47,576 bases of DNA from an uncultured Flavobacteriaceae bacterium (GCA_964617385.1 CAZTYX010000001.1:1-47576); one strand, 5' to 3'. Positions 3,219 to 36,032 are shown, counted from the first letter of the stretch. Notes: generated by a model from the sequence alone, not told the origin. Numbers and translations: made by a program.

Positions 3219-6200
3219 ATGAAACAAACAAATTTTAAACTTAAACATGCGTTCCGCTCCTTAATGATATTGGGAGCCATGCTCTTTTTGAGTGTAGGGG
3301 CTTATGCACAACAAACGGTTACGGGTAATGTGACCGATGGTGTGTCTCCCCTTCCTGGCGTGAACGTTATTATTAAAGGCACTACCCAAGGGGTGGTGAC
3401 TGACTTTGACGGAAATTTTTCCATTGAATTGCCCAACGGAGATGAGATTTTAGTCTTTTCTTACCTCGGCTTTACCACCCAAGAAGTGGCCGCTACAGAC
3501 AGCATGAATATTGTGCTAGACGCTGGCTCTGACGAATTGGAAGAAGTGGTGGTTACTGGTTATGGGGCACAAAGAAAAGCTACAGTTACAGGTGCCGTTA
3601 CCCAAATCAAAGGCGAGAGCGTTGTAAAATCGCCCGCTGTAGATTTAACCAATTCCTTGGCTGGTCGTTTGCCTGGTATTACCGTTCGACAAGGATCTGG
3701 TGAGCCTGGATATGATGGAGCTTCCATCAATATTCGTGGTTTAAACACCTTAGGAAATTCCAGTCCTTTAATTGTAATCGACGGTATTCCCGATCGTGAT
3801 GGTGGTATTGGCCGATTGAATCCACAAGACATCGAAAGCATTTCTGTGTTAAAGGATGCCTCCTCTGCCATTTATGGGGCACGTGCTGCTAATGGGGTAA
3901 TTTTGATTACCACGAAACGCGGTGCTACAGGAGAACCTTCTTTAGAATATAGCTTTAATGCTGGGTTTTCAACACCCACTGTATTTCCTGAAATGTCTAG
4001 CGCATTTGAATATGCAAGCATCATGAACGAGGTGCCAATTTACAAGAACATACCTTCTACCGAATGGGGTGCCGCTTGGAACAGTATTCAATCTACAGGA
4101 ACATATACTTCTGCCGGCAACGGAACTACTATAAATTCAAATTATAGCCCCGAAGCGGTGCAGGGATATCAAACGGGTAACGACCCATGGAAATACCCTA
4201 ACACCGATTGGTATAGAGACACCTTTAAAGAATGGGCGCCTCAACAACGCCACAATTTACAACTCTCTGGTGGTACTGAAAAAGTAAAATACTTTACTTC
4301 TTTAGGCTACATTTATCAAGATGCTATTTACGAAAATTCTGCCACCTACTACAAGCAATACAACTTGCGCATGAACTTGGATGCAGAAGTTAATGAATAT
4401 GTTAAAATGAATCTTGGGATAATGTCCCGTCGTGAAGACCGAAACTTCCCCACTGTGGGTGCCGGTGCCATCTTTAGAATGTTGCAACGTGGTCGCCCTG
4501 TGGAACCCGCCTTCTGGCCCACTGGAGAACCTGGACCAGATATTGAAAACGGACAAAACCCTGTGGTGGTTACAACCGGTGCTACTGGATATGTTAAAAA
4601 TCCTAAAGATTATATCCAAATTAACAGTGGTGTGACTATTTCCAACCCTTGGATTGAAGGCTTGGATTTGATAATCAACGGTTCTGTTGACGTAAATAGA
4701 GAAACCAACAAAAGATGGGAAACACCATGGAAATTATACGCATGGGATGGTGTGAATCGCGATTCTAGCGGATTGAGCGGAAACGTTCGTTCTCCCTTCA
4801 CCGATGCGCGTTTAACACAAAGCGCTAACTCTGTATTAAACTCAACCTTATCTGCGCAGCTAAAGTATGATTTTACCCTAGGTGAAAATCACGACTTTGG
4901 TTTGTTTGCTGGGGTAACAAGAGAACAATTTACAGGGTCTAATTTCTTTGCCTTTAGAAGAAATTATATTTCTCCTGCCATTGACCAACTTTTTGCTGGG
5001 GGTGCGCTAGACCAAAACACTGGTGGTTCTGCCTATGACAGAACGCGTTTAGGATATTATGGTAGAGTACAATACAACTACAACGATACCTATTTGGCCG
5101 AATTGCTTTTCCGTCGAGATGGTTCATACATCTTCCCAAAAGAAGGACGCTATGGTAACTTCCCTGGGATTTTGCTCGGTTGGAATATTTCAAACGAATC
5201 TTGGTTTGACGTAAGTGGAATCAACTATTTGAAATTTAGAGGTTCTTATGGTGAGATGGGTAACGATCAAGTATTCTACAATGGTAGTTTACAAGAATAT
5301 GCTTTCCTTTCTACCTTTGGATTCGGCGAATATCCTATCAACAGTCAGGTGGTTAAAACCTTATATGAAACTGTTTTACCCAACCCCAACTTTACTTGGG
5401 AGGTGGCGCGAAATACCAACATTGGTTTAGACGCCAAATTATTTGATCGTTTCAATTTAACCTTAGAATGGTTTAACAACCAACGAGACAATATTTTGAT
5501 CCAATTGCAAGGTAGCACACCTGCTTCCTCAGGAATTAGCAGCTTGCTTCCACCAACCAACTTTGGTAAGATGAACAACAGTGGTTACGAATTCTCTCTT
5601 GTATACAATGGAGGAGACACCAATTATGTTGATTCAAATGCTTTCCGATATAATATTGGAGTGAATGGAGGATACAATAAAAATGAAGTAGTCTTTATTG
5701 ATGAAGTGTCTGGAGCACCTGCCTATCAATTGCAAGAAGGAAAGCCCTTAGGTGCCTACTTGCTCTATGAAACAGATGGTGTGTTTAGAGATGCCAATGA
5801 TATTGCAGCCAACACCGTGGACTACAGCGGCGTTACACCACAGCTTTTGCCTGGTGACTTGCGCTTGGTAGACTACAATGGTGATGGCAAAATTGATGCT
5901 GATGACCAAGTACGTCAAGACAAGAGTTTTACACCACAATTCCAATATGGTATTACGTTAGATGTGAGCTATAAAAACTTTGATCTTTCTGTTTTATTCC
6001 AAGGATCTACTGGGGCATTGGCCTTGTTTAGTGGTGAATTTGGTGATATTGGAAACTACTATAAGTGGCAATATGACAACCGTTGGAGCATTGACAATCC
6101 AAGTAACGTTCACCCACGTTTAGCCCTACGTGGAGACACCTATTATTCGGGTGGTAATTTTGCAAACAACACTTATAATTATTTCAGCACTGATTATTTC

Positions 6201-24130: not shown

Positions 24131-25738
24131 TTAATATTTAATCAGACTAAATTCTAGGGCAAAAGGATCGAGGGTTTCCATAAGATCAGCTATGAAATCA
24201 GGGCCATAGTCAACAAAAAAACTTGTAAAGTTAGCTTGTCTTTCTTGCAAACTATCGTTAGGAAAAAGGGATTCATGCAAGGTTGCCATGCGTTTCACAT
24301 GATCTGCCAATTTTCTTTTTTGAGCACTCAACAAACGTTTTTCAAGCGTTTCAATTCCTTTAAATTGTTTGGCTTTTTGTGCTTGCACTGCTCCTTTAAA
24401 AGAGGGGTCGGTTGTTGCCACTAATTCCTCTAAATGGTCAAATTGCGATTGCAGTTGCGTTTTAAGAAAACTGAGATCTAAATCAATGTTGCTGATTTGT
24501 CTAATTTTTTTATTGATTAATTCATTGCGCGATAAAAAGAGGTCTTCGGAAGAAAGTTGCAAACGCGCCACCTTTTGGTCGCTTTTTGATGTCATTAACA
24601 GCGCACTGTTTCGGAGCAATAAAATGGGAAAAGGGGTTTGCTCGGATTCAAAAAAACTTTTTAGTTGAAACCAATAGGCCAACTCACCACCACCACCCAC
24701 ATAGGCCACATTGGGCAATATTGTTTCTTGATAAAGTGGACGCAGCAACACATTGGGTGAAAATCGTTCAGGGTGCGTGTTCAATTCTGCAATTAACGTC
24801 TCGGCGGTTTTGGATGCGTCCAAACCTTCAAAAAGAAATTGATCTCCGTTTTTTTTAATTCGGTGCCGACCATTTTCTGTGAGGTAAAAAAGATTAATTT
24901 CTCGAGGATTGACTTGTGGCACAAAATTTTGATGATAGGCTTTTTGCAATCTTTGGGTCTGTGCTAAAACCGTTTCATAGCATTGTTGCTGTTCTAGTTC
25001 ACGTTGCATGGGCGGCACAAACACTTTTTTTAGTGCCGAATCATTGCCATCTAATATCACAAGAGGATAATCAGCAAATAGGAATTGTACAAAAGTACGT
25101 GTGGCCGTTGCTAAATCAGGTGCTTTACGATAACTTTCGGCAATCCATTCTTTGAGTAGTGCGGTGCCAGGCTTGTGTCCTAAATGCTGCTCAAAAAGAT
25201 CGAGTACGGGCTGTAAATCGTCTAGAGCAATAGTGCCCACTGCACGTCCCGCTTGTTTACTATTCCATTGAATTTTCTTTCCTTCAAACAAAAAAGATTG
25301 AATTTCTTCAAAATCATGATCTTCTGTGGCCATCCAATACACAGGAACAAAATTGTAATCGCTGTGTTTTTTATTCAATTCTTGCGCCGCCTTAATGACG
25401 GTGATGATCTTATATATAAAAAATAAAGGGCCGGTCATTAAACACAATTGGTGTCCCGTGGTAATGGTTACCGTATTGTCTTTTTTCAAAAGATCAATGC
25501 CTTTTTGGGCCGCTGGAAATAAGGTTAAATTGTTGTATTGTTTTTGAAGGGTTTCCACCAACACTGCTCGATTGTCAGATGTAAAGGATTGGCTTTTTTC
25601 TTTGGCTTGTTTTTCAAAATTGGCCAGCGTTGGAAAACGACCATAAAACGGTTGCAAACTGCTTTGCTGCGCTAAATAATCGCACATCAAGACAGAAAAG
25701 CGCCCAGTCTTTGCAAAGGGGATGGCCGTGTGTTGCAT
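24131..25738 (-). CDS. bshC: Bacillithiol biosynthesis cysteine-adding enzyme BshC
   Basis: 535-aa ORF. The N-terminus (..FAKTGRFSVLMCDYLAQQSSLQPFYGRFPTLANFEKQAKEK) and the length match my recollection of flavobacterial BshC/YllA-family proteins. This is a recognition-level call only. Confidence 0.7.
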   Translation of the reverse strand: MQHTAIPFAKTGRFSVLMCDYLAQQSSLQPFYGRFPTLANFEKQAKEKSQSFTSDNRAVLVETLQKQYNNLTLFPAAQKGIDLLKKDNTVTITTGHQLCLMTGPLFFIYKIITVIKAAQELNKKHSDYNFVPVYWMATEDHDFEEIQSFLFEGKKIQWNSKQAGRAVGTIALDDLQPVLDLFEQHLGHKPGTALLKEWIAESYRKAPDLATATRTFVQFLFADYPLVILDGNDSALKKVFVPPMQRELEQQQCYETVLAQTQRLQKAYHQNFVPQVNPREINLFYLTENGRHRIKKNGDQFLFEGLDASKTAETLIAELNTHPERFSPNVLLRPLYQETILPNVAYVGGGGELAYWFQLKSFFESEQTPFPILLLRNSALLMTSKSDQKVARLQLSSEDLFLSRNELINKKIRQISNIDLDLSFLKTQLQSQFDHLEELVATTDPSFKGAVQAQKAKQFKGIETLEKRLLSAQKRKLADHVKRMATLHESLFPNDSLQERQANFTSFFVDYGPDFIADLMETLDPFALEFSLIKY

Positions 25739-28495: not shown

Positions 28496-30133
28496 TTATG
28501 GATAATATTCGGGTGGTTTACGGTGGCGAGCGATTTTTTCAAAGGCAGCAGCCAATTCAATAAGCAATTGTTCTTGTTTGCCCTGCGCAATAAGGCTCAT
28601 ATTTTGTGGTTTTCCATCGGCATAAAATCCAATGGGTAGGCCAATGGCGCTATAATGTACCGTGGCCAAATGGCTAGAGGTAAAGTAATCTAACGTTATC
28701 AAAGCATCCAATCGATTTTCTTCAAACAGCGCATCCATCGCTTTTGTTAGCGCTGCTCTAAAGCTTTCTTTTTTTAGCTGAAATGTTTCATAGTTGGTGG
28801 TGTCTTGGGCAATATTTTCAAAAATGGCTTGGCCATAGGGGGCATTTTTTTCAGCTGCTTGACGATTAAAAGCAATGATATCGGTAATGTTTTTTGCAGA
28901 AAGGGATGCATTTCCATAGGTTTCAATGTAGCGAGGAAGGTCCACCTTCATATCGGTGTCTAAAATTTTAATAAACAACGCTATGTCTATTTCGGGAAGG
29001 GTAACTTCCATCACTGTTCCACCAGCCTTTTTGATTTGTTGCACTGCTTGTTGTATTAGGGTATCTTGGGCGTCTGTATCCACCAAACCAAAGCGTTTCC
29101 CTTTTAGACTGGCGTTTTCTAAGAATGCTGGGTTTAAGGGGCTAGCGGCGTAGCTATATTTATCTTTGGGATCATAACCAATTAAGGCATTATAAATTAA
29201 AAGATTATCTATAACCCATTTTGTCATGGGACCGGCTGTGTCAAAAGTGGAAGAAATGGGAATGATTCCTGAACGACTCACAGCGCCAATGGTCGGTTTT
29301 AGCCCCACCAAGGCATTTTTGGCCGCAGGCGATAATATTGAACCCGAAGTTTCTGTGCCAATGGTTGCCACCGCATAATTGGCCGCAGCAGCCACCCCAC
29401 TTCCCGAACTAGAACCCCCCGATTCAAAAACTTTTCGCCCATAGGGATTTAATGTTTGCCCACCCAGTGCACTATAACCAAGGGGACAACCCTCGCAAAA
29501 ATAGTAGGCCCATTCACTTAAATTGAGTTTTCCTAAAATCAATGCTCCTTGCGCTTTTAATTGATTCACAATAAAAGCATCAGCTTTGGTTTGATTGGTT
29601 GCAAACACTGCCGCACCAGCAGTGGTGGGCATGGCAGCCGTATTAATGTTGTCTTTCAAAAGAATGGGCATGCCATAAAGTGGCTGTTGAGTGGCCTTTT
29701 CGGGATGGTTGTCTTTTTCACGTGCTTGCGCCAAAACGGTTGGATTTAAACTTATAACAGCATTGAGATATAAGTTAGGGTCGGTTTCATAACGATAAAT
29801 TCTATAGAGGTAAAACAAGGTCAACTCTTCATAGGTAAAAATCTTTTGGGCAATAGCTCTTTGAAGTTCGGGAATGGATTGCTCTAAAATATGAGGTTTC
29901 AATTCTTTATAGCGATTAGCAAACCCTAACAATTCCTTTTCAAAATGGGTGAACCACTGGTTCTTGTCAGTATGTTGCGATTGCAAACGTTTGTATTGTA
30001 GCCGCTGATTTTCATGGGTGGCGTTTTTAGCCAACTCCGCTGTTTCATCATAAGGCACCCATTTAGTTAATTGGGGCGGGGTGTTGCACTGCCAAAAAAT
30101 AAGACCCAAAAATAAAATTGCTCTAGTTTTCAT
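28496..30133 (-). CDS. Amidase-signature family lipoprotein
   Basis: 545-aa ORF with lipobox LIFWQC. Amidase signature is GGSSSGSGVAAAANYAVATIGTETSGSILSPA. Confidence 0.88.
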   Translation of the reverse strand: MKTRAILFLGLIFWQCNTPPQLTKWVPYDETAELAKNATHENQRLQYKRLQSQHTDKNQWFTHFEKELLGFANRYKELKPHILEQSIPELQRAIAQKIFTYEELTLFYLYRIYRYETDPNLYLNAVISLNPTVLAQAREKDNHPEKATQQPLYGMPILLKDNINTAAMPTTAGAAVFATNQTKADAFIVNQLKAQGALILGKLNLSEWAYYFCEGCPLGYSALGGQTLNPYGRKVFESGGSSSGSGVAAAANYAVATIGTETSGSILSPAAKNALVGLKPTIGAVSRSGIIPISSTFDTAGPMTKWVIDNLLIYNALIGYDPKDKYSYAASPLNPAFLENASLKGKRFGLVDTDAQDTLIQQAVQQIKKAGGTVMEVTLPEIDIALFIKILDTDMKVDLPRYIETYGNASLSAKNITDIIAFNRQAAEKNAPYGQAIFENIAQDTTNYETFQLKKESFRAALTKAMDALFEENRLDALITLDYFTSSHLATVHYSAIGLPIGFYADGKPQNMSLIAQGKQEQLLIELAAAFEKIARHRKPPEYYP

Positions 30134-31118
30134 TGTTTGGCAAAACGCGTTTTAAAAAATTGAGGGTAGCGGTGGTCACTTGGTCATAATTTTTGGTTGA
30201 CAAAAAAGAAGTCATCACATGTTCTCCCGCTTCTGGAAAGGTCATTTTTTGCTTTAAAGAATCGGGAGTACCCAATTGTTCATACATTTCTAAAAGGGCG
30301 GGTATTGAAACCACATCGTCTTTGTTTTGTTCGTCTTTAAAATAATATCCCATAAAAAGCGGCTTTGTGAATGCAACAAACGTTTCGGGTTGCATTTTTA
30401 ATTCTAAGAATTTTTGCAAATGAGCGCCAGATTCTAAACGGGTGATGTAGGTCCAATATTTCTTTTTTTCTTCGGTGAGCCGATCCATTTCATGATAATT
30501 TCCTCCCTTAACCAATCGAGCCAATTGAATGCCCCAAGGTTTGGATAAAACCACTGCCGCTGGATCGGCCAAACGAATGTTGGGGGAATAAACTGCTACA
30601 GCAGCCACTTGGGGATCCTGCCCCAGTGACAGGGCAAGTGTGGATCCATGAGAAGTTGCAAGGATAATCACTTTTTCACCCAAGTTTTTAGCAATGGCAA
30701 GCGCCTCTTTGGCACTTTCCCAATAGGGGTCGTTATGAAAATTGAGCATGGGCTCCTTTTCATCCAATCCATGACCATATAAACGAGGTACATATAAATT
30801 GGCTCCCAGGGCTTTGGCAATATCTATATGCACCGGATCTCCTTCAATGGGACTGGCCGTAAACCCATGATAATATAAAACAGCATATTCTGTTTTTTGA
30901 GGAATGGAATCATGAAAAAGCAGAACCGATTGGTTGCCTGGTTTGATGTTTGCTATGGCGGCCTCACTATTTTCAATATAATTGGCTAATGTGTTTAATT
31001 CTTGTGGCACTTCAGGCATTGTGGGGTCCAAAACGGGCGTTTCTACCCTAGGACCCAACAAATAGACCGCACCAATGAGCAAAACCACCGCAACAATACC
31101 TTTTGAAATTTTATTCAT
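30123..31118 (-). CDS. Alpha/beta-fold hydrolase (esterase/lipase-like), N-terminally anchored
   Basis: 331-aa ORF with an N-terminal hydrophobic helix. It contains the HG oxyanion-type motif YYHGFTASP and a nucleophile-elbow-like ATSHGS. It overlaps the amidase start by 11 nt. Confidence 0.7.
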   Translation of the reverse strand: MNKISKGIVAVVLLIGAVYLLGPRVETPVLDPTMPEVPQELNTLANYIENSEAAIANIKPGNQSVLLFHDSIPQKTEYAVLYYHGFTASPIEGDPVHIDIAKALGANLYVPRLYGHGLDEKEPMLNFHNDPYWESAKEALAIAKNLGEKVIILATSHGSTLALSLGQDPQVAAVAVYSPNIRLADPAAVVLSKPWGIQLARLVKGGNYHEMDRLTEEKKKYWTYITRLESGAHLQKFLELKMQPETFVAFTKPLFMGYYFKDEQNKDDVVSIPALLEMYEQLGTPDSLKQKMTFPEAGEHVMTSFLSTKNYDQVTTATLNFLKRVLPNNEN

Positions 31119-32728: not shown

Positions 32729-32758
32729 CAAATTTAATCTTTTTATGGGAGATACAAA
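32729..32758 (-). promoter_or_regulatory. Candidate rpmB promoter (-7 TAAATTTG plus -33 TTTG)
   Basis: The minus strand has TAAATTTG at 32729-32736, 22 nt upstream of the ATG. A TTTG lies at 32755-32758, giving an 18-nt spacer. Confidence 0.55.
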
Positions 32759-32822
32759 GAAAGTTTGGGCATAATTTAAATTCTCTTGGTTAAAAAAAAT
32801 TATTATGTACTGAAAAAAATTA

Positions 32823-32830
32823 TACCTTTG
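32823..32830 (+). promoter_or_regulatory. Candidate -7 box (TACCTTTG) for the YHS-to-NRDE operon
   Basis: A perfect TAnnTTTG match sits 22 nt upstream of the ATG at 32853. I found no clear -33 TTTG. Confidence 0.45.
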
Positions 32831-32852
32831 GAATCCAATCTCTTATCATCAA

Positions 32853-33326
32853 ATGACCTATCTATACTCCTCTCGATTTTTACTTGTTCCTTTATTTTTG
32901 TTTCACTGTTTGACTTTTAGCCAGAACACAGAAACACATCTTAATCTAGATAAGAATAACCTTGCTGTTTCCGGCTATGATTTGGTTGCCTACTTTGACA
33001 CAAAGGCCATTAAGGGCAGTTCAAAGTTTGAACTAACCTATGATGGAGGAATTTACCGATTTCACAATCAAAAAAACAAATTGCTTTTTGAGGAAAATCC
33101 AGTGAAATACTTGCCACAATATGGAGGCTGGTGTGCTTACGCCATGGGCTATAATGGAGAGAAAGTTTCTATTAATCCGGAATCCTTTAGCATTGAAAAC
33201 GGCAAACTGTATCTTTTTTATAAAACCTTTTTTAATGATACAAAAACAAAATGGTTAGAGAATACTAAAGTTTTGAAAGAAAAAGCTGATGAAAATTGGA
33301 ATAACTATATAACAAATGAAAATTAA
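32853..33326 (+). CDS. YHS-domain-containing secreted protein (Cys form of the YHS (seleno)protein family)
   Basis: 157-aa ORF with a signal peptide. Motifs are SGYDLVAYFD, YRFHNQKNKLLFEENPVKYLPQYGGWCAYAMG and NGKLYLF. Confidence 0.75.
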   Translation: MTYLYSSRFLLVPLFLFHCLTFSQNTETHLNLDKNNLAVSGYDLVAYFDTKAIKGSSKFELTYDGGIYRFHNQKNKLLFEENPVKYLPQYGGWCAYAMGYNGEKVSINPESFSIENGKLYLFYKTFFNDTKTKWLENTKVLKEKADENWNNYITNEN

Positions 33327-33727
33327 TGAAAATAAAAATTGACTTTCTTTTGCGTATAATCACAGCTGTAATTTTATTACAATCGTTGTATTTTAAATTT
33401 ACAGGACATTCCGAAGCAGTGCATATTTTTTCTACATTAAACGCTGAGCCATGGGGGAGAATTACTTTAGGCTGGATTGAACTTGTTGTTGGCGTATCAC
33501 TTCTATTTCCCAAAACAAAATTTTATGGCACACTTGGTGCAATTGCCTTAATGCTTGGAGCTATTTGTGTCCACTTGTTCACATCAATTGGCATTGTAGT
33601 TCAATGGGGAGAAAAATCTGATAATGGGCAACTTTTCACCATGTCTATTGTGGCATTCTTATGTAGTGTTTTGAGTTTTTATATTCAAAAGAAAGCAACT
33701 CTAAATAAACAACCGTCTAGAATTTAA
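33326..33727 (+). CDS. DoxX-like small integral membrane protein
   Basis: 133-aa ORF with about four predicted TM helices. Its ATG shares one base with the upstream stop (TAATG). The DoxX-like assignment is recognition-level only. Confidence 0.5.
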   Translation: MKIKIDFLLRIITAVILLQSLYFKFTGHSEAVHIFSTLNAEPWGRITLGWIELVVGVSLLFPKTKFYGTLGAIALMLGAICVHLFTSIGIVVQWGEKSDNGQLFTMSIVAFLCSVLSFYIQKKATLNKQPSRI

Positions 33728-33742
33728 AAGCACCTTGTTCTC

Positions 33743-34774
33743 ATGACGTTGAAGCGCATCTATCATTATGAGTTTTGGCCATTTTGGCTGTTTTACATTC
33801 CTGCATTTTTTTATTATTTTTTTCTTGCAATTAGAGCTAAAAGGTGGGTCTACTTTTCTACTCTGAACAATTCAATGAATTTTGGAGGTGCATTTTTGAG
33901 TTCGAAAAACAACTACCTAAAAGAAATACCAATAAAATGGGTTCCAACTACCATTTTTGTTCCACCTCAGGAAAATTTTAATAAAACTCAAAAAAAACTT
34001 AGGGAAAAAAAAATCACCTTCCCATTAATTGTAAAACCCGACATGGGTGAAAGGGGCAAAAATGTGGCATTACTCTCCACTCCAAAAGAATTAGAAGACT
34101 ACTTGAAAAAAGCCAACCAACCATCGCTCATTCAAGAATACATTTCCTATCCTATTGAGTTGGGAATACTTTTTTATTGGAACACCAAAAAAAGACCTGT
34201 TATCAGTTCAATCGGCGTGAAAACATTTTGCGAAATTGAAGGAAATGGTAATGACACATTAAAACAACTGGTGTCTAAAAACCACCGAATATCTAAGCGC
34301 AAGGAGTTCCTATCCCGTAAATTCAAAAAGGATTGGCATAGAAAAATTTCTTCAGGAGAAAAAATACTTATAGAACCTATTGGCAACCACAATCTAGGCA
34401 CCACCTTTTGTGATGGCAGAAAAAACTATTCCAAAGAAATGCTTTTATGGGTAGCAAATTGTGTGAAAAATATTCCAGGATTTGATTACCGACGACTAGA
34501 TATAAAAATCAAAGATTGGTCTGCCTTCAAAAATAATGACGGCATTAAAATTATTGAAATTAATGGTATTAATTCTGAACCCATACATATTTATGACCCT
34601 AATTACAACCTATGGAAAGCATACAGAGATATATTTCAACATATGAATATCATCTATAAACTCAGTAAAAACAAAAGAGAATTAAAAATAAAGCCCATTT
34701 CTCTCATTGAGTTTATAATGGGAGCTAAAAAAGCATTGAACCAAAAAAAAATAACACAACATCTTTACCTATGA
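33743..34774 (+). CDS. ATP-grasp-fold ligase with an N-terminal transmembrane helix; substrate unknown
   Basis: 343-aa ORF. The N-terminus FWPFWLFYIPAFFYYFFLAI is hydrophobic. ATP-grasp hallmarks are FPLIVKPDMGERGKNVALL, the hinge LIQEYI, and the ExN metal motif in KIIEINGINSEP. Confidence 0.65.
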   Translation: MTLKRIYHYEFWPFWLFYIPAFFYYFFLAIRAKRWVYFSTLNNSMNFGGAFLSSKNNYLKEIPIKWVPTTIFVPPQENFNKTQKKLREKKITFPLIVKPDMGERGKNVALLSTPKELEDYLKKANQPSLIQEYISYPIELGILFYWNTKKRPVISSIGVKTFCEIEGNGNDTLKQLVSKNHRISKRKEFLSRKFKKDWHRKISSGEKILIEPIGNHNLGTTFCDGRKNYSKEMLLWVANCVKNIPGFDYRRLDIKIKDWSAFKNNDGIKIIEINGINSEPIHIYDPNYNLWKAYRDIFQHMNIIYKLSKNKRELKIKPISLIEFIMGAKKALNQKKITQHLYL

Positions 34775-35280
34775 ATTTAAATGCCCAAATCCACGTACTT
34801 ACAGACTTAAAAAAATTACTAGAAAATTTAAATCCCACCTCTTTCACGCGTAAAAACAGTTCATTATTCGGGAGTACAATTGGGGAGCATTTCAGACATA
34901 TAATTGAATTTTATATCTGTTGCTTTGAGCAAAAAGATTCAGGAGTCATAAACTACGATTTGAGACAAAGAGACCCTTCCCTAGAAAACAACATTGCCTT
35001 AGGCATTCTTGAGATTAATAAAATTTCAGAACTAATAAAACAGGCTGAAAATAATAAAAATGTGAACCTTATCTTTGACAACTGTCTAAATGAGAGTGTT
35101 AACAAAAATGGCTCTCAAACATCTTTTTATAGAGAACTTTCCTATTGTATGGATCATTGCATACACCACCAGAGTTTAATCAAAATTGCTCTATTGGAGC
35201 AAGGACTCCATCATCTAATCGACAAAAACTTTGGCGTAGCCTTTTCTACTCAAAAACACAGACAAGAATGTGCATCGTAA
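34771..35280 (+). CDS. DinB-like (four-helix-bundle, His-triad) protein
   Basis: 169-aa ORF whose ATG overlaps the ATP-grasp stop (ATGA). Candidate metal ligands lie in GEHFRHIIEFY and MDHCIHHQSLI. Confidence 0.5.
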   Translation: MNLNAQIHVLTDLKKLLENLNPTSFTRKNSSLFGSTIGEHFRHIIEFYICCFEQKDSGVINYDLRQRDPSLENNIALGILEINKISELIKQAENNKNVNLIFDNCLNESVNKNGSQTSFYRELSYCMDHCIHHQSLIKIALLEQGLHHLIDKNFGVAFSTQKHRQECAS

Positions 35281-35963
35281 CCTATATTCCAACAAAAAAA
35301 GGTTTTTTTTTCACAAGCAACAGAGATGAAGTGAAAACGCGACAAACCGATTGTCTTAAGACGTATAAACATCAAGGTTTTGAGTTTTTATATCCAAAAG
35401 ATTTGGAAAAAGGAGGCAGTTGGTTTGTTGTAAATACCTCAAGTAAAAAAATTGCCTGTCTTTTGAATGCAACTGGCAAACAACCAAATCTTGACACAAA
35501 AATGAGTAGAGGGCTTATTCCAATAAACTTTCTGATTCATGAAAAGAACTTTTTGCTAGAAGAAATGATTGAAAAAGTTTCACCCTTTACCTTAATATGC
35601 ATTCAATATGGCAACAATATTATTATTGAAGAATTTGAATGGAATGGTGAGCGTTTGACACGAAAAAAAATTAATGAAAAAGAAACCCACTTATGGTGTT
35701 CAAACACCCTATATAATAGAGATTACAAAGAACACCTAACAAAAAAAATCTTATGTGAAACCCCAAAATTGAAAAGCACTAGAGAGGTTATAGATTTTCA
35801 TAAAAAAATGGCCCAGCCCGAAAACAGCAACGTATATTTAAAAAAAGACAAATGCTTACAAACGCTGAGCATAACCTGTTTTAATGAAACAGAAAATCAA
35901 GAAATTATTTCATATTTAGATATACAAAAAAACGCAACCAAGGTTTATATTAAAGAATTTTGA
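35268..35963 (+). CDS. NRDE-family (TANGO2-like) protein
   Basis: I start it at the ATG at 35268, giving MCIVTYIPTKKGFFFTSNRDE. This carries the literal NRDE motif and an N-terminal Met-Cys, and it overlaps the DinB-like gene by 13 nt. The track's longer ORF (from 35145) would run out of frame across the upstream gene. Confidence 0.7.
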   Translation: MCIVTYIPTKKGFFFTSNRDEVKTRQTDCLKTYKHQGFEFLYPKDLEKGGSWFVVNTSSKKIACLLNATGKQPNLDTKMSRGLIPINFLIHEKNFLLEEMIEKVSPFTLICIQYGNNIIIEEFEWNGERLTRKKINEKETHLWCSNTLYNRDYKEHLTKKILCETPKLKSTREVIDFHKKMAQPENSNVYLKKDKCLQTLSITCFNETENQEIISYLDIQKNATKVYIKEF

Positions 35964-36032
35964 GAAGCTATTGTTATTTGCATAAAATATTCATTACCTA
36001 AAAATATAAGCTTATTACTTAATTCGTTATGC

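Follow-up and report, generated by a model that had tools for sequence, protein, structure and literature searches.

A conserved Bacteroidota gene module that links an ATP-grasp ligase with a DinB-fold protein and a TANGO2-family hydrolase homolog

Five closely packed genes and their relatives in Bacteroidota

We analyzed a 47,576-nucleotide (nt) stretch of DNA from an uncultured Flavobacteriaceae bacterium (GCA_964617385.1 CAZTYX010000001.1:1-47576), referred to below as the window, in which an earlier note had singled out five same-strand genes at positions 32853-35963. A listing of the open reading frames (ORFs) recovered all five at these coordinates on the + strand. The first (32853-33326) encodes a YHS-domain protein of 157 amino acids (aa) that is predicted to be secreted (NCBIfam NF041384 and Pfam YHS), and the second (33326-33727) encodes a small integral membrane protein of the DoxX/MauE family (133 aa; Pfam MauE, DoxX_2, and DoxX). 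The third gene (33743-34774), which serves as the anchor of the module described here, encodes an ATP-grasp carboxylate-amine ligase of 343 aa, recognized by Pfam TTL and RimK and by its AlphaFold model. It is followed by a gene for a stand-alone DinB-fold protein (34771-35280; 169 aa), recognized by comparing its AlphaFold model with PDB, and by a gene for a homolog of the TANGO2/NRDE-family Cys-Ntn hydrolases (35268-35963; 231 aa; Pfam TANGO2), called NRDE below. The junctions are exactly as tight as the earlier note had described: the YHS stop and DoxX start codons overlap in TAATG at 33324-33328, a 15-nt gap (33728-33742) separates DoxX from the ligase, the ligase stop overlaps the DinB-like ATG in ATGA at 34771-34774, and the DinB-like and NRDE genes share 13 nt (35268-35280), the NRDE start being the ATG at 35268 (MCIVTY...). 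The five genes are probably co-transcribed.

The five genes are one copy of a real, widely conserved Bacteroidota module. In a pattern scan that covered GTDB with one genome for each species, 381 genomes encoded a relative of the ligase, and the best 80 loci were taken from these; they span Flavobacteriaceae, Marinifilaceae, Prolixibacteraceae, Cyclobacteriaceae, and Bacteroidales metagenome-assembled genomes (MAGs), as well as a Sphingobacteriales MAG, Roseivirga, Flammeovirgaceae, and a Chlorobiota MAG. The neighborhood set comprised 86 loci, six of them duplicates or near-duplicates, in which every ORF was searched with iterated hidden Markov models of the five window proteins for partners within 10 kb of the ligase. 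A DinB-like gene was present in 76/86 loci and NRDE in 62/86, and where found, both adjoin the ligase in nearly all loci; YHS and DoxX were present in 39 and 30 loci, respectively. The earlier note had asked whether the five genes are co-conserved elsewhere. The trio of ATP-grasp, DinB-like, and NRDE genes is indeed syntenic across Bacteroidota, but YHS and DoxX are not universal. Based on the locus counts, we define the core of the module as the ligase and the DinB-like protein, usually with NRDE, and regard YHS and DoxX as facultative.

The trio is retained in at least four gene orders. The arrangement of the window (YHS-DoxX-ligase-DinB-NRDE) recurs throughout Flavobacteriaceae, and Arcticimaribacter has YHS-ligase-DinB. 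In Marinifilaceae and the Bacteroidales MAGs, the order is divergent, with DinB and NRDE transcribed away from the ligase (NRDE<-DinB<- ->ligase). Two loci, L081 and L092, carry (LysE-)YHS-(DM13-)DoxX-DinB-NRDE-ligase, L091 shows this order with an additional 308-aa gene after DoxX, and L093 has DinB-NRDE-ligase. Whether the architecture is collinear or divergent, the DinB and NRDE genes overlap by about 12-13 nt. When all neighboring ORFs of the 86 loci were clustered, no sixth family common to the lineages emerged, and the rest was lineage-specific synteny.

Each domain family in this module was already known. The earlier note could not match the genes to a known system, and our literature search likewise found no paper on the ATP-grasp/DinB/NRDE combination. 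An assignment of the ATP-grasp and DinB-like proteins to well-characterized unrelated families would have counted against the note, but profile searches placed neither of them in any characterized family. Database names of the homologs read only "hypothetical," "ATP-grasp domain-containing," or "DinB family." None of the five proteins matched a PADLOC defense model at an E value of 0.01 or less.

The encoded proteins

The ligase exceeded the Pfam cut-offs for TTL (score of 25.9 against 20.1) and RimK (23.2 against 21). The best PDB matches of its AlphaFold model (predicted local distance difference test [pLDDT] score of 80) were the G-domain of cyanophycin synthetase, the ATP-grasp domain of GshF, and the D-Ala-D-Ala ligases (Ddl). 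Foldseek gave a probability of 1.00 to CphA1, GshF, and Ddl, placing the protein in the ATP-grasp superfamily, with the glutathione-synthetase domain of GshF ranking third among the structural matches. Sequence-level matches to solved structures were no better than an E value of 1e-4, and the protein fell far below the cut-off of every NCBIfam family (RimK TIGR00768, 28.5 versus 143.4 bits; CphA TIGR02068, 22.5 versus 850), aligning only in part: residues 68-137 to RimK and residues 71-274 to the 862-position CphA model. Across 80 homologs, K98, R251, D253, E272, and N274 are conserved, including the ATP-binding Lys and the Mg2+-binding E-x-N.

By both sequence and structure, then, the closest relatives are the RimK, cyanophycin synthetase, and tubulin-tyrosine-ligase-like ATP-grasp ligases, whose ATP- and Mg2+-binding residues are kept. 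The ligase differs from them in that the usual pre-ATP-grasp N-domain is replaced by an aromatic-rich hydrophobic helix (YEFWPFWLFY..., residues about 12-31) and in that it carries a conserved NPxM..GG..SK segment. The earlier note had called it a "membrane" ATP-grasp protein; the hydrophobic N-terminal helix is present, but it fails the Kyte-Doolittle threshold of 1.5. We consider that this helix may tether the ligase to the membrane. The family comprises more than 1372 clusters at 90% identity, all of 340-370 aa. In a search for Rosetta-stone fusions, the ligase matches listed and the top DinB-like matches were mostly single-domain proteins of uniform length.

The DinB-like protein did not reach the Pfam DinB_2 (PF12867) cut-off (15.3 bits versus 24.8), some of its relatives gave weak DinB_2 matches, and searching PDB sequences with its profile returned nothing meaningful. 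Its AlphaFold model (pLDDT of 93), however, assigns it to the DinB/YfiT fold: essentially all of the top ~30 PDB matches were DinB, YfiT, MST, or EgtB-N-domain structures, with template modeling scores up to 0.66/0.77 and probabilities up to 1.00. Twelve residues are at least 95% conserved among 71 homologs (H40, R42, H43, E46, Y62, D63, R65, R121, E122, H129, H132, and H133). Among these, H40, H129, and H133 form the three-His triad expected of the fold, with an early His and a late HxxxH, and metal binding is predicted on this basis; the protein also has an Arg-rich pocket. The family includes 4408 clusters at 50% identity, all of about 160-180 aa, and two matches (215 and 233 aa) bear an N-terminal extension of ~55 residues.

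NRDE is a clear member of the TANGO2/HtpA family (PF05742, formerly DUF833/NRDE; 69.2 bits; cut-off, 22.6) and has both of its hallmarks, an N-terminal Cys and the NRDE motif. M1-C2, R19-D20-E21, and N67 are invariant in 58/58 homologs, the motif taking the form (N/S/T)RDE. The conserved residues correspond to Cys2, Asn25, Arg26, and Asp27 of human TANGO2, to which the 2026 paper on the crystal structure attributes the active site of a Cys-Ntn hydrolase (PMC13044924). A sequence-level PDB search with NRDE did not return a TANGO2 structure, and the only match, to dephospho-CoA kinase (E value of 0.02), was rejected as spurious. Deficiency of human TANGO2 is a severe metabolic disease, and it is disputed in the literature whether the protein acts in heme trafficking, in acyl-CoA binding, or as a Cys-Ntn hydrolase (PMC13044924, PMC11867700, PMC12782551). 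While eukaryotic TANGO2 and Shewanella HtpA have been studied as stand-alone genes, here the family member is coupled to a DinB-fold gene and linked to an ATP-grasp ligase.

YHS and TRASH domains bind metals. The YHS protein belongs to the NCBIfam family NF041384, "YHS domain-containing (seleno)protein" (124.2 bits; cut-off, 70), matches Pfam YHS at an E value of 4e-6, and has a signal-peptide-like N terminus. In 34 homologs, Cys94 of its GGWCAYA motif is invariant, and the residues around it (G91, G92, W93, A95, Y96, and A97) are at least 95% conserved. YHS is a known selenoprotein family (PMC2398784). From the name of NF041384 and selenoprotein surveys, Cys94 is expected to occupy the selenocysteine (Sec) position. 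At the GGW[C/U] position itself, the window and the relatives checked have Cys rather than Sec. Sec was also considered for four loci in which the YHS ORF is short or missing (L010, L015, L016, and L062) and was rejected, as upstream translations contained no in-frame TGA at the Cys position; the gene is truly absent in L010 and L016. In L062 it is frameshifted and split over two frames; the ATP-grasp gene of L018 is likewise broken in two, and both cases represent either decaying copies or MAG assembly errors.

The second protein reached the Pfam gathering scores of MauE (32.6 bits; cut-off, 27), DoxX_2 (27.0; cut-off, 26.3), and DoxX (23.6; cut-off, 23.6). It has three clear hydrophobic segments (residues 5-23, 73-91, and 102-120) and one weaker one. 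H28, E41, R45, E52, H83, W94, and D99 are conserved in 28 homologs, and no Cys is.

A possible role on an amide-linked metabolite

The genes found around the core in other lineages bear on what it may do. A LysE-type exporter gene follows the ligase, with stop and start codons overlapping or nearly abutting, in six Bacteroidales MAG loci (L039-L041, L044, L047, and L048), in Roseivirga (L086), and in L091, and it is the first gene of the seven-gene L081 array; in L086 and L091 a Crp/Fnr-type regulator comes after LysE. In Mariniphaga (L032), a rhodanese-thioredoxin fusion lies between YHS and DoxX, a position taken in L081 by an electron-transfer DM13 protein. A rhodanese gene is found 1-3 kb from the ligase in 16 Marinifilaceae loci. 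The Chlorobiota locus (L067) combines DUF3179, the ligase, a rhodanese adjoining the ligase, EgtB, and a class I/II pyridoxal phosphate (PLP) enzyme, its EgtB being bona fide (TIGR03440, 525 bits) and 0.7 kb downstream of the ligase. In Bacteroidales MAGs, DinB-NRDE is accompanied by EgtB and/or EgtD, SRAP, two thioredoxin-fold proteins (redoxins), and MsrB; L037 has both EgtB and EgtD, four related loci have EgtD, either whole or truncated where the contig ends, and these genes lie at a distance of 4-7 kb from the trio. The window operon has neither LysE nor a Crp/Fnr regulator, and none of the accessory genes of other lineages (LysE, rhodanese, DM13, or Egt type) was found in the window. Taken together, these neighbors are suggestive, though not decisive, of a small, hydrophilic product resembling an amino acid, which is exported and has a link to sulfur and redox chemistry.

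Several further observations concern these neighborhoods. In Marinifilaceae (L051-L084), a conserved block on the opposite strand at +1 to +4 kb from the ligase appears to encode a rhodanese with a membrane anchor, both halves of a YeeE/YedE-like sulfur transporter, and a large beta-barrel protein of the outer membrane; this block may represent a functional link or lineage synteny only. A gene for a histidine-specific, EgtD-type methyltransferase near the trio, without EgtB in the 21-kb locus, was seen in L041 (about 5221-6165, by homology) and in L048 (5220-6170; Methyltransf_33, E value of 1e-96). Genes of 419-469 aa near EgtD in L037, L041, and L048 were considered as EanB and ruled out, as they encode calcineurin-like phosphoesterases. 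A PALP gene abutting the ligase in L082, considered as CysK, is of the beta-hydroxyaspartate/Ser-Thr dehydratase type according to NCBIfam and was removed from the sulfur evidence.

We tentatively favor, at somewhat less than even confidence, a reading in which the three core enzymes act on one small amide-linked metabolite, likeliest an amino-acid-derived, sulfur-containing one such as a cysteine-type thiol, its precursor, or its conjugates. Since NRDE is coupled to the DinB gene and tied to the ligase, the substrate of the hydrolase is probably the ligase product or a derivative of it. The ligase would build or rebuild an amide via an acyl-phosphate at the inner face of the membrane, the metal of the DinB protein would activate a thiol that then enters C-S or S-conjugate chemistry, and NRDE would trim or recycle the amide by cleaving or transferring the amide-linked group. 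The product would then cross the membrane, in several lineages by a LysE-type exporter, and in the envelope the secreted YHS protein, with its reactive Cys, and DoxX/MauE would use or re-oxidize it; DoxX/MauE could pass electrons to or from the membrane. Both the export and the order of these steps are presumed. The earlier note had proposed an envelope-associated thiol or small-peptide conjugation and detoxification module. Its general theme is backed by the YHS Cys and by the rhodanese, thioredoxin-fold, MsrB, EgtB/EgtD, and LysE neighbors, but a role in detoxification rather than in biosynthesis or recycling, and that of DinB as a thiol transferase, are putative only.

The logic of such a module would resemble that of GshB/GST/GGT, MshC/MST/Mca, or EgtA/EgtB/EgtC, assembled from non-orthologous parts. 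In the GshB-GST-GGT, MshC-MST-Mca, and BshC-BstA-Bca/BshB2 sets, the same three kinds of activity (ligase, thiol transferase, and amide hydrolase) are encoded together; the ATP-grasp type is represented by GshB and the C-terminal domain of GshF, the DinB fold with its His triad by MST and BstA/YfiT, and the Ntn hydrolases by GGT. By sequence, however, the three proteins described here fall outside all of those families: the hydrolase is of the TANGO2 type and not GGT or Mca, the ligase lacks the N-domain and is predicted to be membrane-tethered, and BshC is already present in the host. The earlier note had reported that the window encodes this enzyme, and we found its gene at 24131-25738 on the - strand (TIGR03998, 444 bits versus 266), 7 kb upstream of the operon. 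The host therefore probably makes bacillithiol, and this says nothing specific about the five-gene operon. For the DoxX protein, a further parallel is the mycobacterial DoxX-SseA-SodA membrane oxidoreductase complex, in which DoxX acts with thiol or sulfur-transfer partners. In the present module, a secreted YHS Cys protein takes the place of SodA and SseA as the partner, and a rhodanese is present in several versions of the module.

A number of points weigh against the reading of a shared, sulfur-containing metabolite. The link of the substrate to sulfur is putative. Thioredoxin-fold and rhodanese genes are numerous in Bacteroidota, and some of the adjacencies may be due to chance; EgtB/EgtD adjacency occurs in only two lineages and not in the window. 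The DinB-like protein is not specially close to thiol transferases, its best structural matches being uncharacterized DinB proteins, with EgtB-IV at rank 23 and MST (8f5v) at rank 26 with an E value of 0.74, so that the likeness to thiol transferases is at the level of the fold only. The anchor at the N terminus of the ligase also departs from a classical transmembrane helix. The module itself is also uneven: the ligase often stands alone in Cytophagales and Flammeovirgaceae, Cyclobacterium and Arcticimaribacter have no NRDE nearby, and YHS and DoxX are missing from most non-Flavobacteriaceae loci.

A stronger version of this reading, which we regard as doubtful, is that the product of the module is a hitherto unknown, Bacteroidota-specific low-molecular-weight thiol or peptide cofactor for the envelope, which the encoded proteins make, process, and export, with the TANGO2-type hydrolase acting on the amide that the ligase forms. 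If true, a class of physiological substrates would be assigned to the TANGO2 family for the first time, and the enzyme behind human TANGO2 deficiency disorder would gain a bacterial model. The main value of the module lies in offering a testable route to the disputed function and substrate of that family. It is present in hundreds of Bacteroidota species, many of them marine, and may mark an unrecognized envelope small-molecule redox system in major polysaccharide degraders of the ocean.

The hydrophobic N terminus of the ligase would also suit lipid or acyl-amide metabolism, in which a tethered ligase couples a lipid-linked or acyl carboxylate with an amino acid and the module remodels an envelope lipid of the N-acyl amino-acid type. 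NRDE would then be an acyl-amide hydrolase or acyl-CoA-dependent N-acyltransferase, like acid ceramidase, NAAA, bile-salt hydrolase, or isopenicillin-N acyltransferase. In the human TANGO2 structure paper, fatty-acid derivatives are suggested as substrates and the enzymes just listed are given as the nearest Cys-Ntn relatives (PMC13044924), and another paper reports acyl-CoA binding by TANGO2 (PMC11867700). In addition, an acyl-CoA dehydrogenase gene lies directly upstream of the trio in L093, and the L091 array contains a weak match to a Phenol_MetA_deg-type outer-membrane protein. We nevertheless consider a lipid substrate unlikely. LysE-family transporters carry small hydrophilic amino-acid-like molecules rather than lipids, the recurrent neighbors are of the redox and sulfur type, and neighbor clustering revealed no acyltransferase or lipid-synthesis gene conserved with the trio; moreover, this scheme has no role for the DinB metalloprotein or the secreted Cys protein.

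The parallel with mycobacterial EgtA-EgtB-EgtC(-EgtD-EgtE) is close in kind, as there too a ligase, a DinB-domain metalloenzyme, and an N-terminal-Cys amidohydrolase act on one cysteine-derived intermediate. The module could accordingly be read as an accessory branch of ergothioneine or thiohistidine biosynthesis, with the ligase as a non-orthologous EgtA supplying a gamma-glutamyl-cysteine-like donor, NRDE as a non-orthologous EgtC taking off the glutamyl group as an Ntn amidohydrolase, and the DinB protein assisting sulfoxide-synthase chemistry. The iron site of EgtB lies in its DinB domain and EgtC is an N-terminal-Cys amidohydrolase, both of which fit, as do EgtB/EgtD near the trio in Bacteroidales MAGs (L037 and the four related loci) and the EgtB and PLP enzyme downstream of the ligase in L067. 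This physical adjacency is nonetheless limited to two of roughly a dozen lineages; most carriers have no Egt genes nearby, and neither EgtB nor EgtD was found in the window, which is therefore not an ergothioneine cluster. In L067 the ligase is not accompanied by a DinB or NRDE gene, and the DinB protein described here lacks the FGE-sulfatase domain. EgtA is a glutamate-cysteine ligase and not an ATP-grasp enzyme, and EgtC is an Ntn enzyme of the class-II glutamine-amidotransferase type, a family different from TANGO2. EgtB also requires O2, while the cultured Marinifilaceae carriers are presumably anaerobic or facultatively anaerobic. On balance, we find an ergothioneine branch quite improbable.

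We hold a role in heme trafficking, in which NRDE would be an HtpA-like heme chaperone and its neighbors would handle heme or metals, to be highly improbable. Metal binding by YHS/TRASH domains would allow the YHS protein a part in it. Shewanella HtpA (SO0126) binds heme and raises cytochrome c content, and a homolog from the flavobacterium Tenacibaculum crassostreae partly complemented Shewanella htpA (PMC10470608). In the alanine scan of HtpA, however, only Y108 was needed (PMC10470608). The invariance of Cys2 and the RDE motif in all 58 homologs points to an enzyme. The human TANGO2 structure shows non-specific heme binding (PMC13044924), and a cross-species study contests the role in heme trafficking (PMC12782551). 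The annotated neighbors and the gene clusters common to at least 10 loci included no ccm or hem gene, and a chaperone model has no place for the ligase and the DinB enzyme. Finally, a chance juxtaposition of unrelated genes, which the varying neighborhoods, the frequent absence of YHS and DoxX, and a promoter-like box that is statistically not distinctive might suggest, is effectively excluded by the synteny analysis, given that the trio occurs together in 62/86 loci through at least four rearrangements, across families and orders, with overlapping start and stop codons kept.

Regulatory signals, composition, and flanking genes

The earlier note had placed a single TAnnTTTG box before the five genes. 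The sequence TACCTTTG, a Bacteroidota-type -7 promoter-like box and candidate promoter element, is indeed present at 32823-32830 on the + strand, 23 nt 5' of the first ATG, but the motif occurs at chance frequency in the window (61 found versus 61.7 expected), and two more copies lie on the + strand inside the operon. By itself, the TACCTTTG box is therefore weak evidence. Its value comes only from its position, since TAnnTTTG-like boxes recur at the same relative position 5' of YHS in related loci. Scans of the window for sigma-70 promoters and terminators returned matches at chance level, and Rfam found no structured RNA in it. A shared operator was sought in the upstream and divergent intergenic regions, where we found only lineage-specific conservation and -7-box-like elements. 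In many Flavobacteriaceae loci, a C(C/T)AAATC-like element precedes the YHS start codon by ~10-20 nt; its sequence in the window is ATCCAATC (about 32833-32840), with equivalents in L008, L009, L011, L013, L014, L017, and L027. This element could be a transcription-start or 5' untranslated region signal, or could simply reflect shared ancestry.

The cassette (window positions 32750-36000) has a G+C content of 32.7%, compared to 41% for the rest of the window, and is flanked by rpmB-rpmG-ftsY and cinA. In most Flavobacteriaceae it is found between rpsT and proS, and the flanks seen here occur in none of the fetched loci. The low G+C content and the differing site suggest that the five genes were relocated or acquired horizontally as a unit. 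Two genes upstream of the operon lies an overlapping pair on the - strand: a gene at 30123-31118 for a 331-aa protein without an NCBIfam match and one at 28496-30133 for a 544-aa amidase of the amidase signature family.

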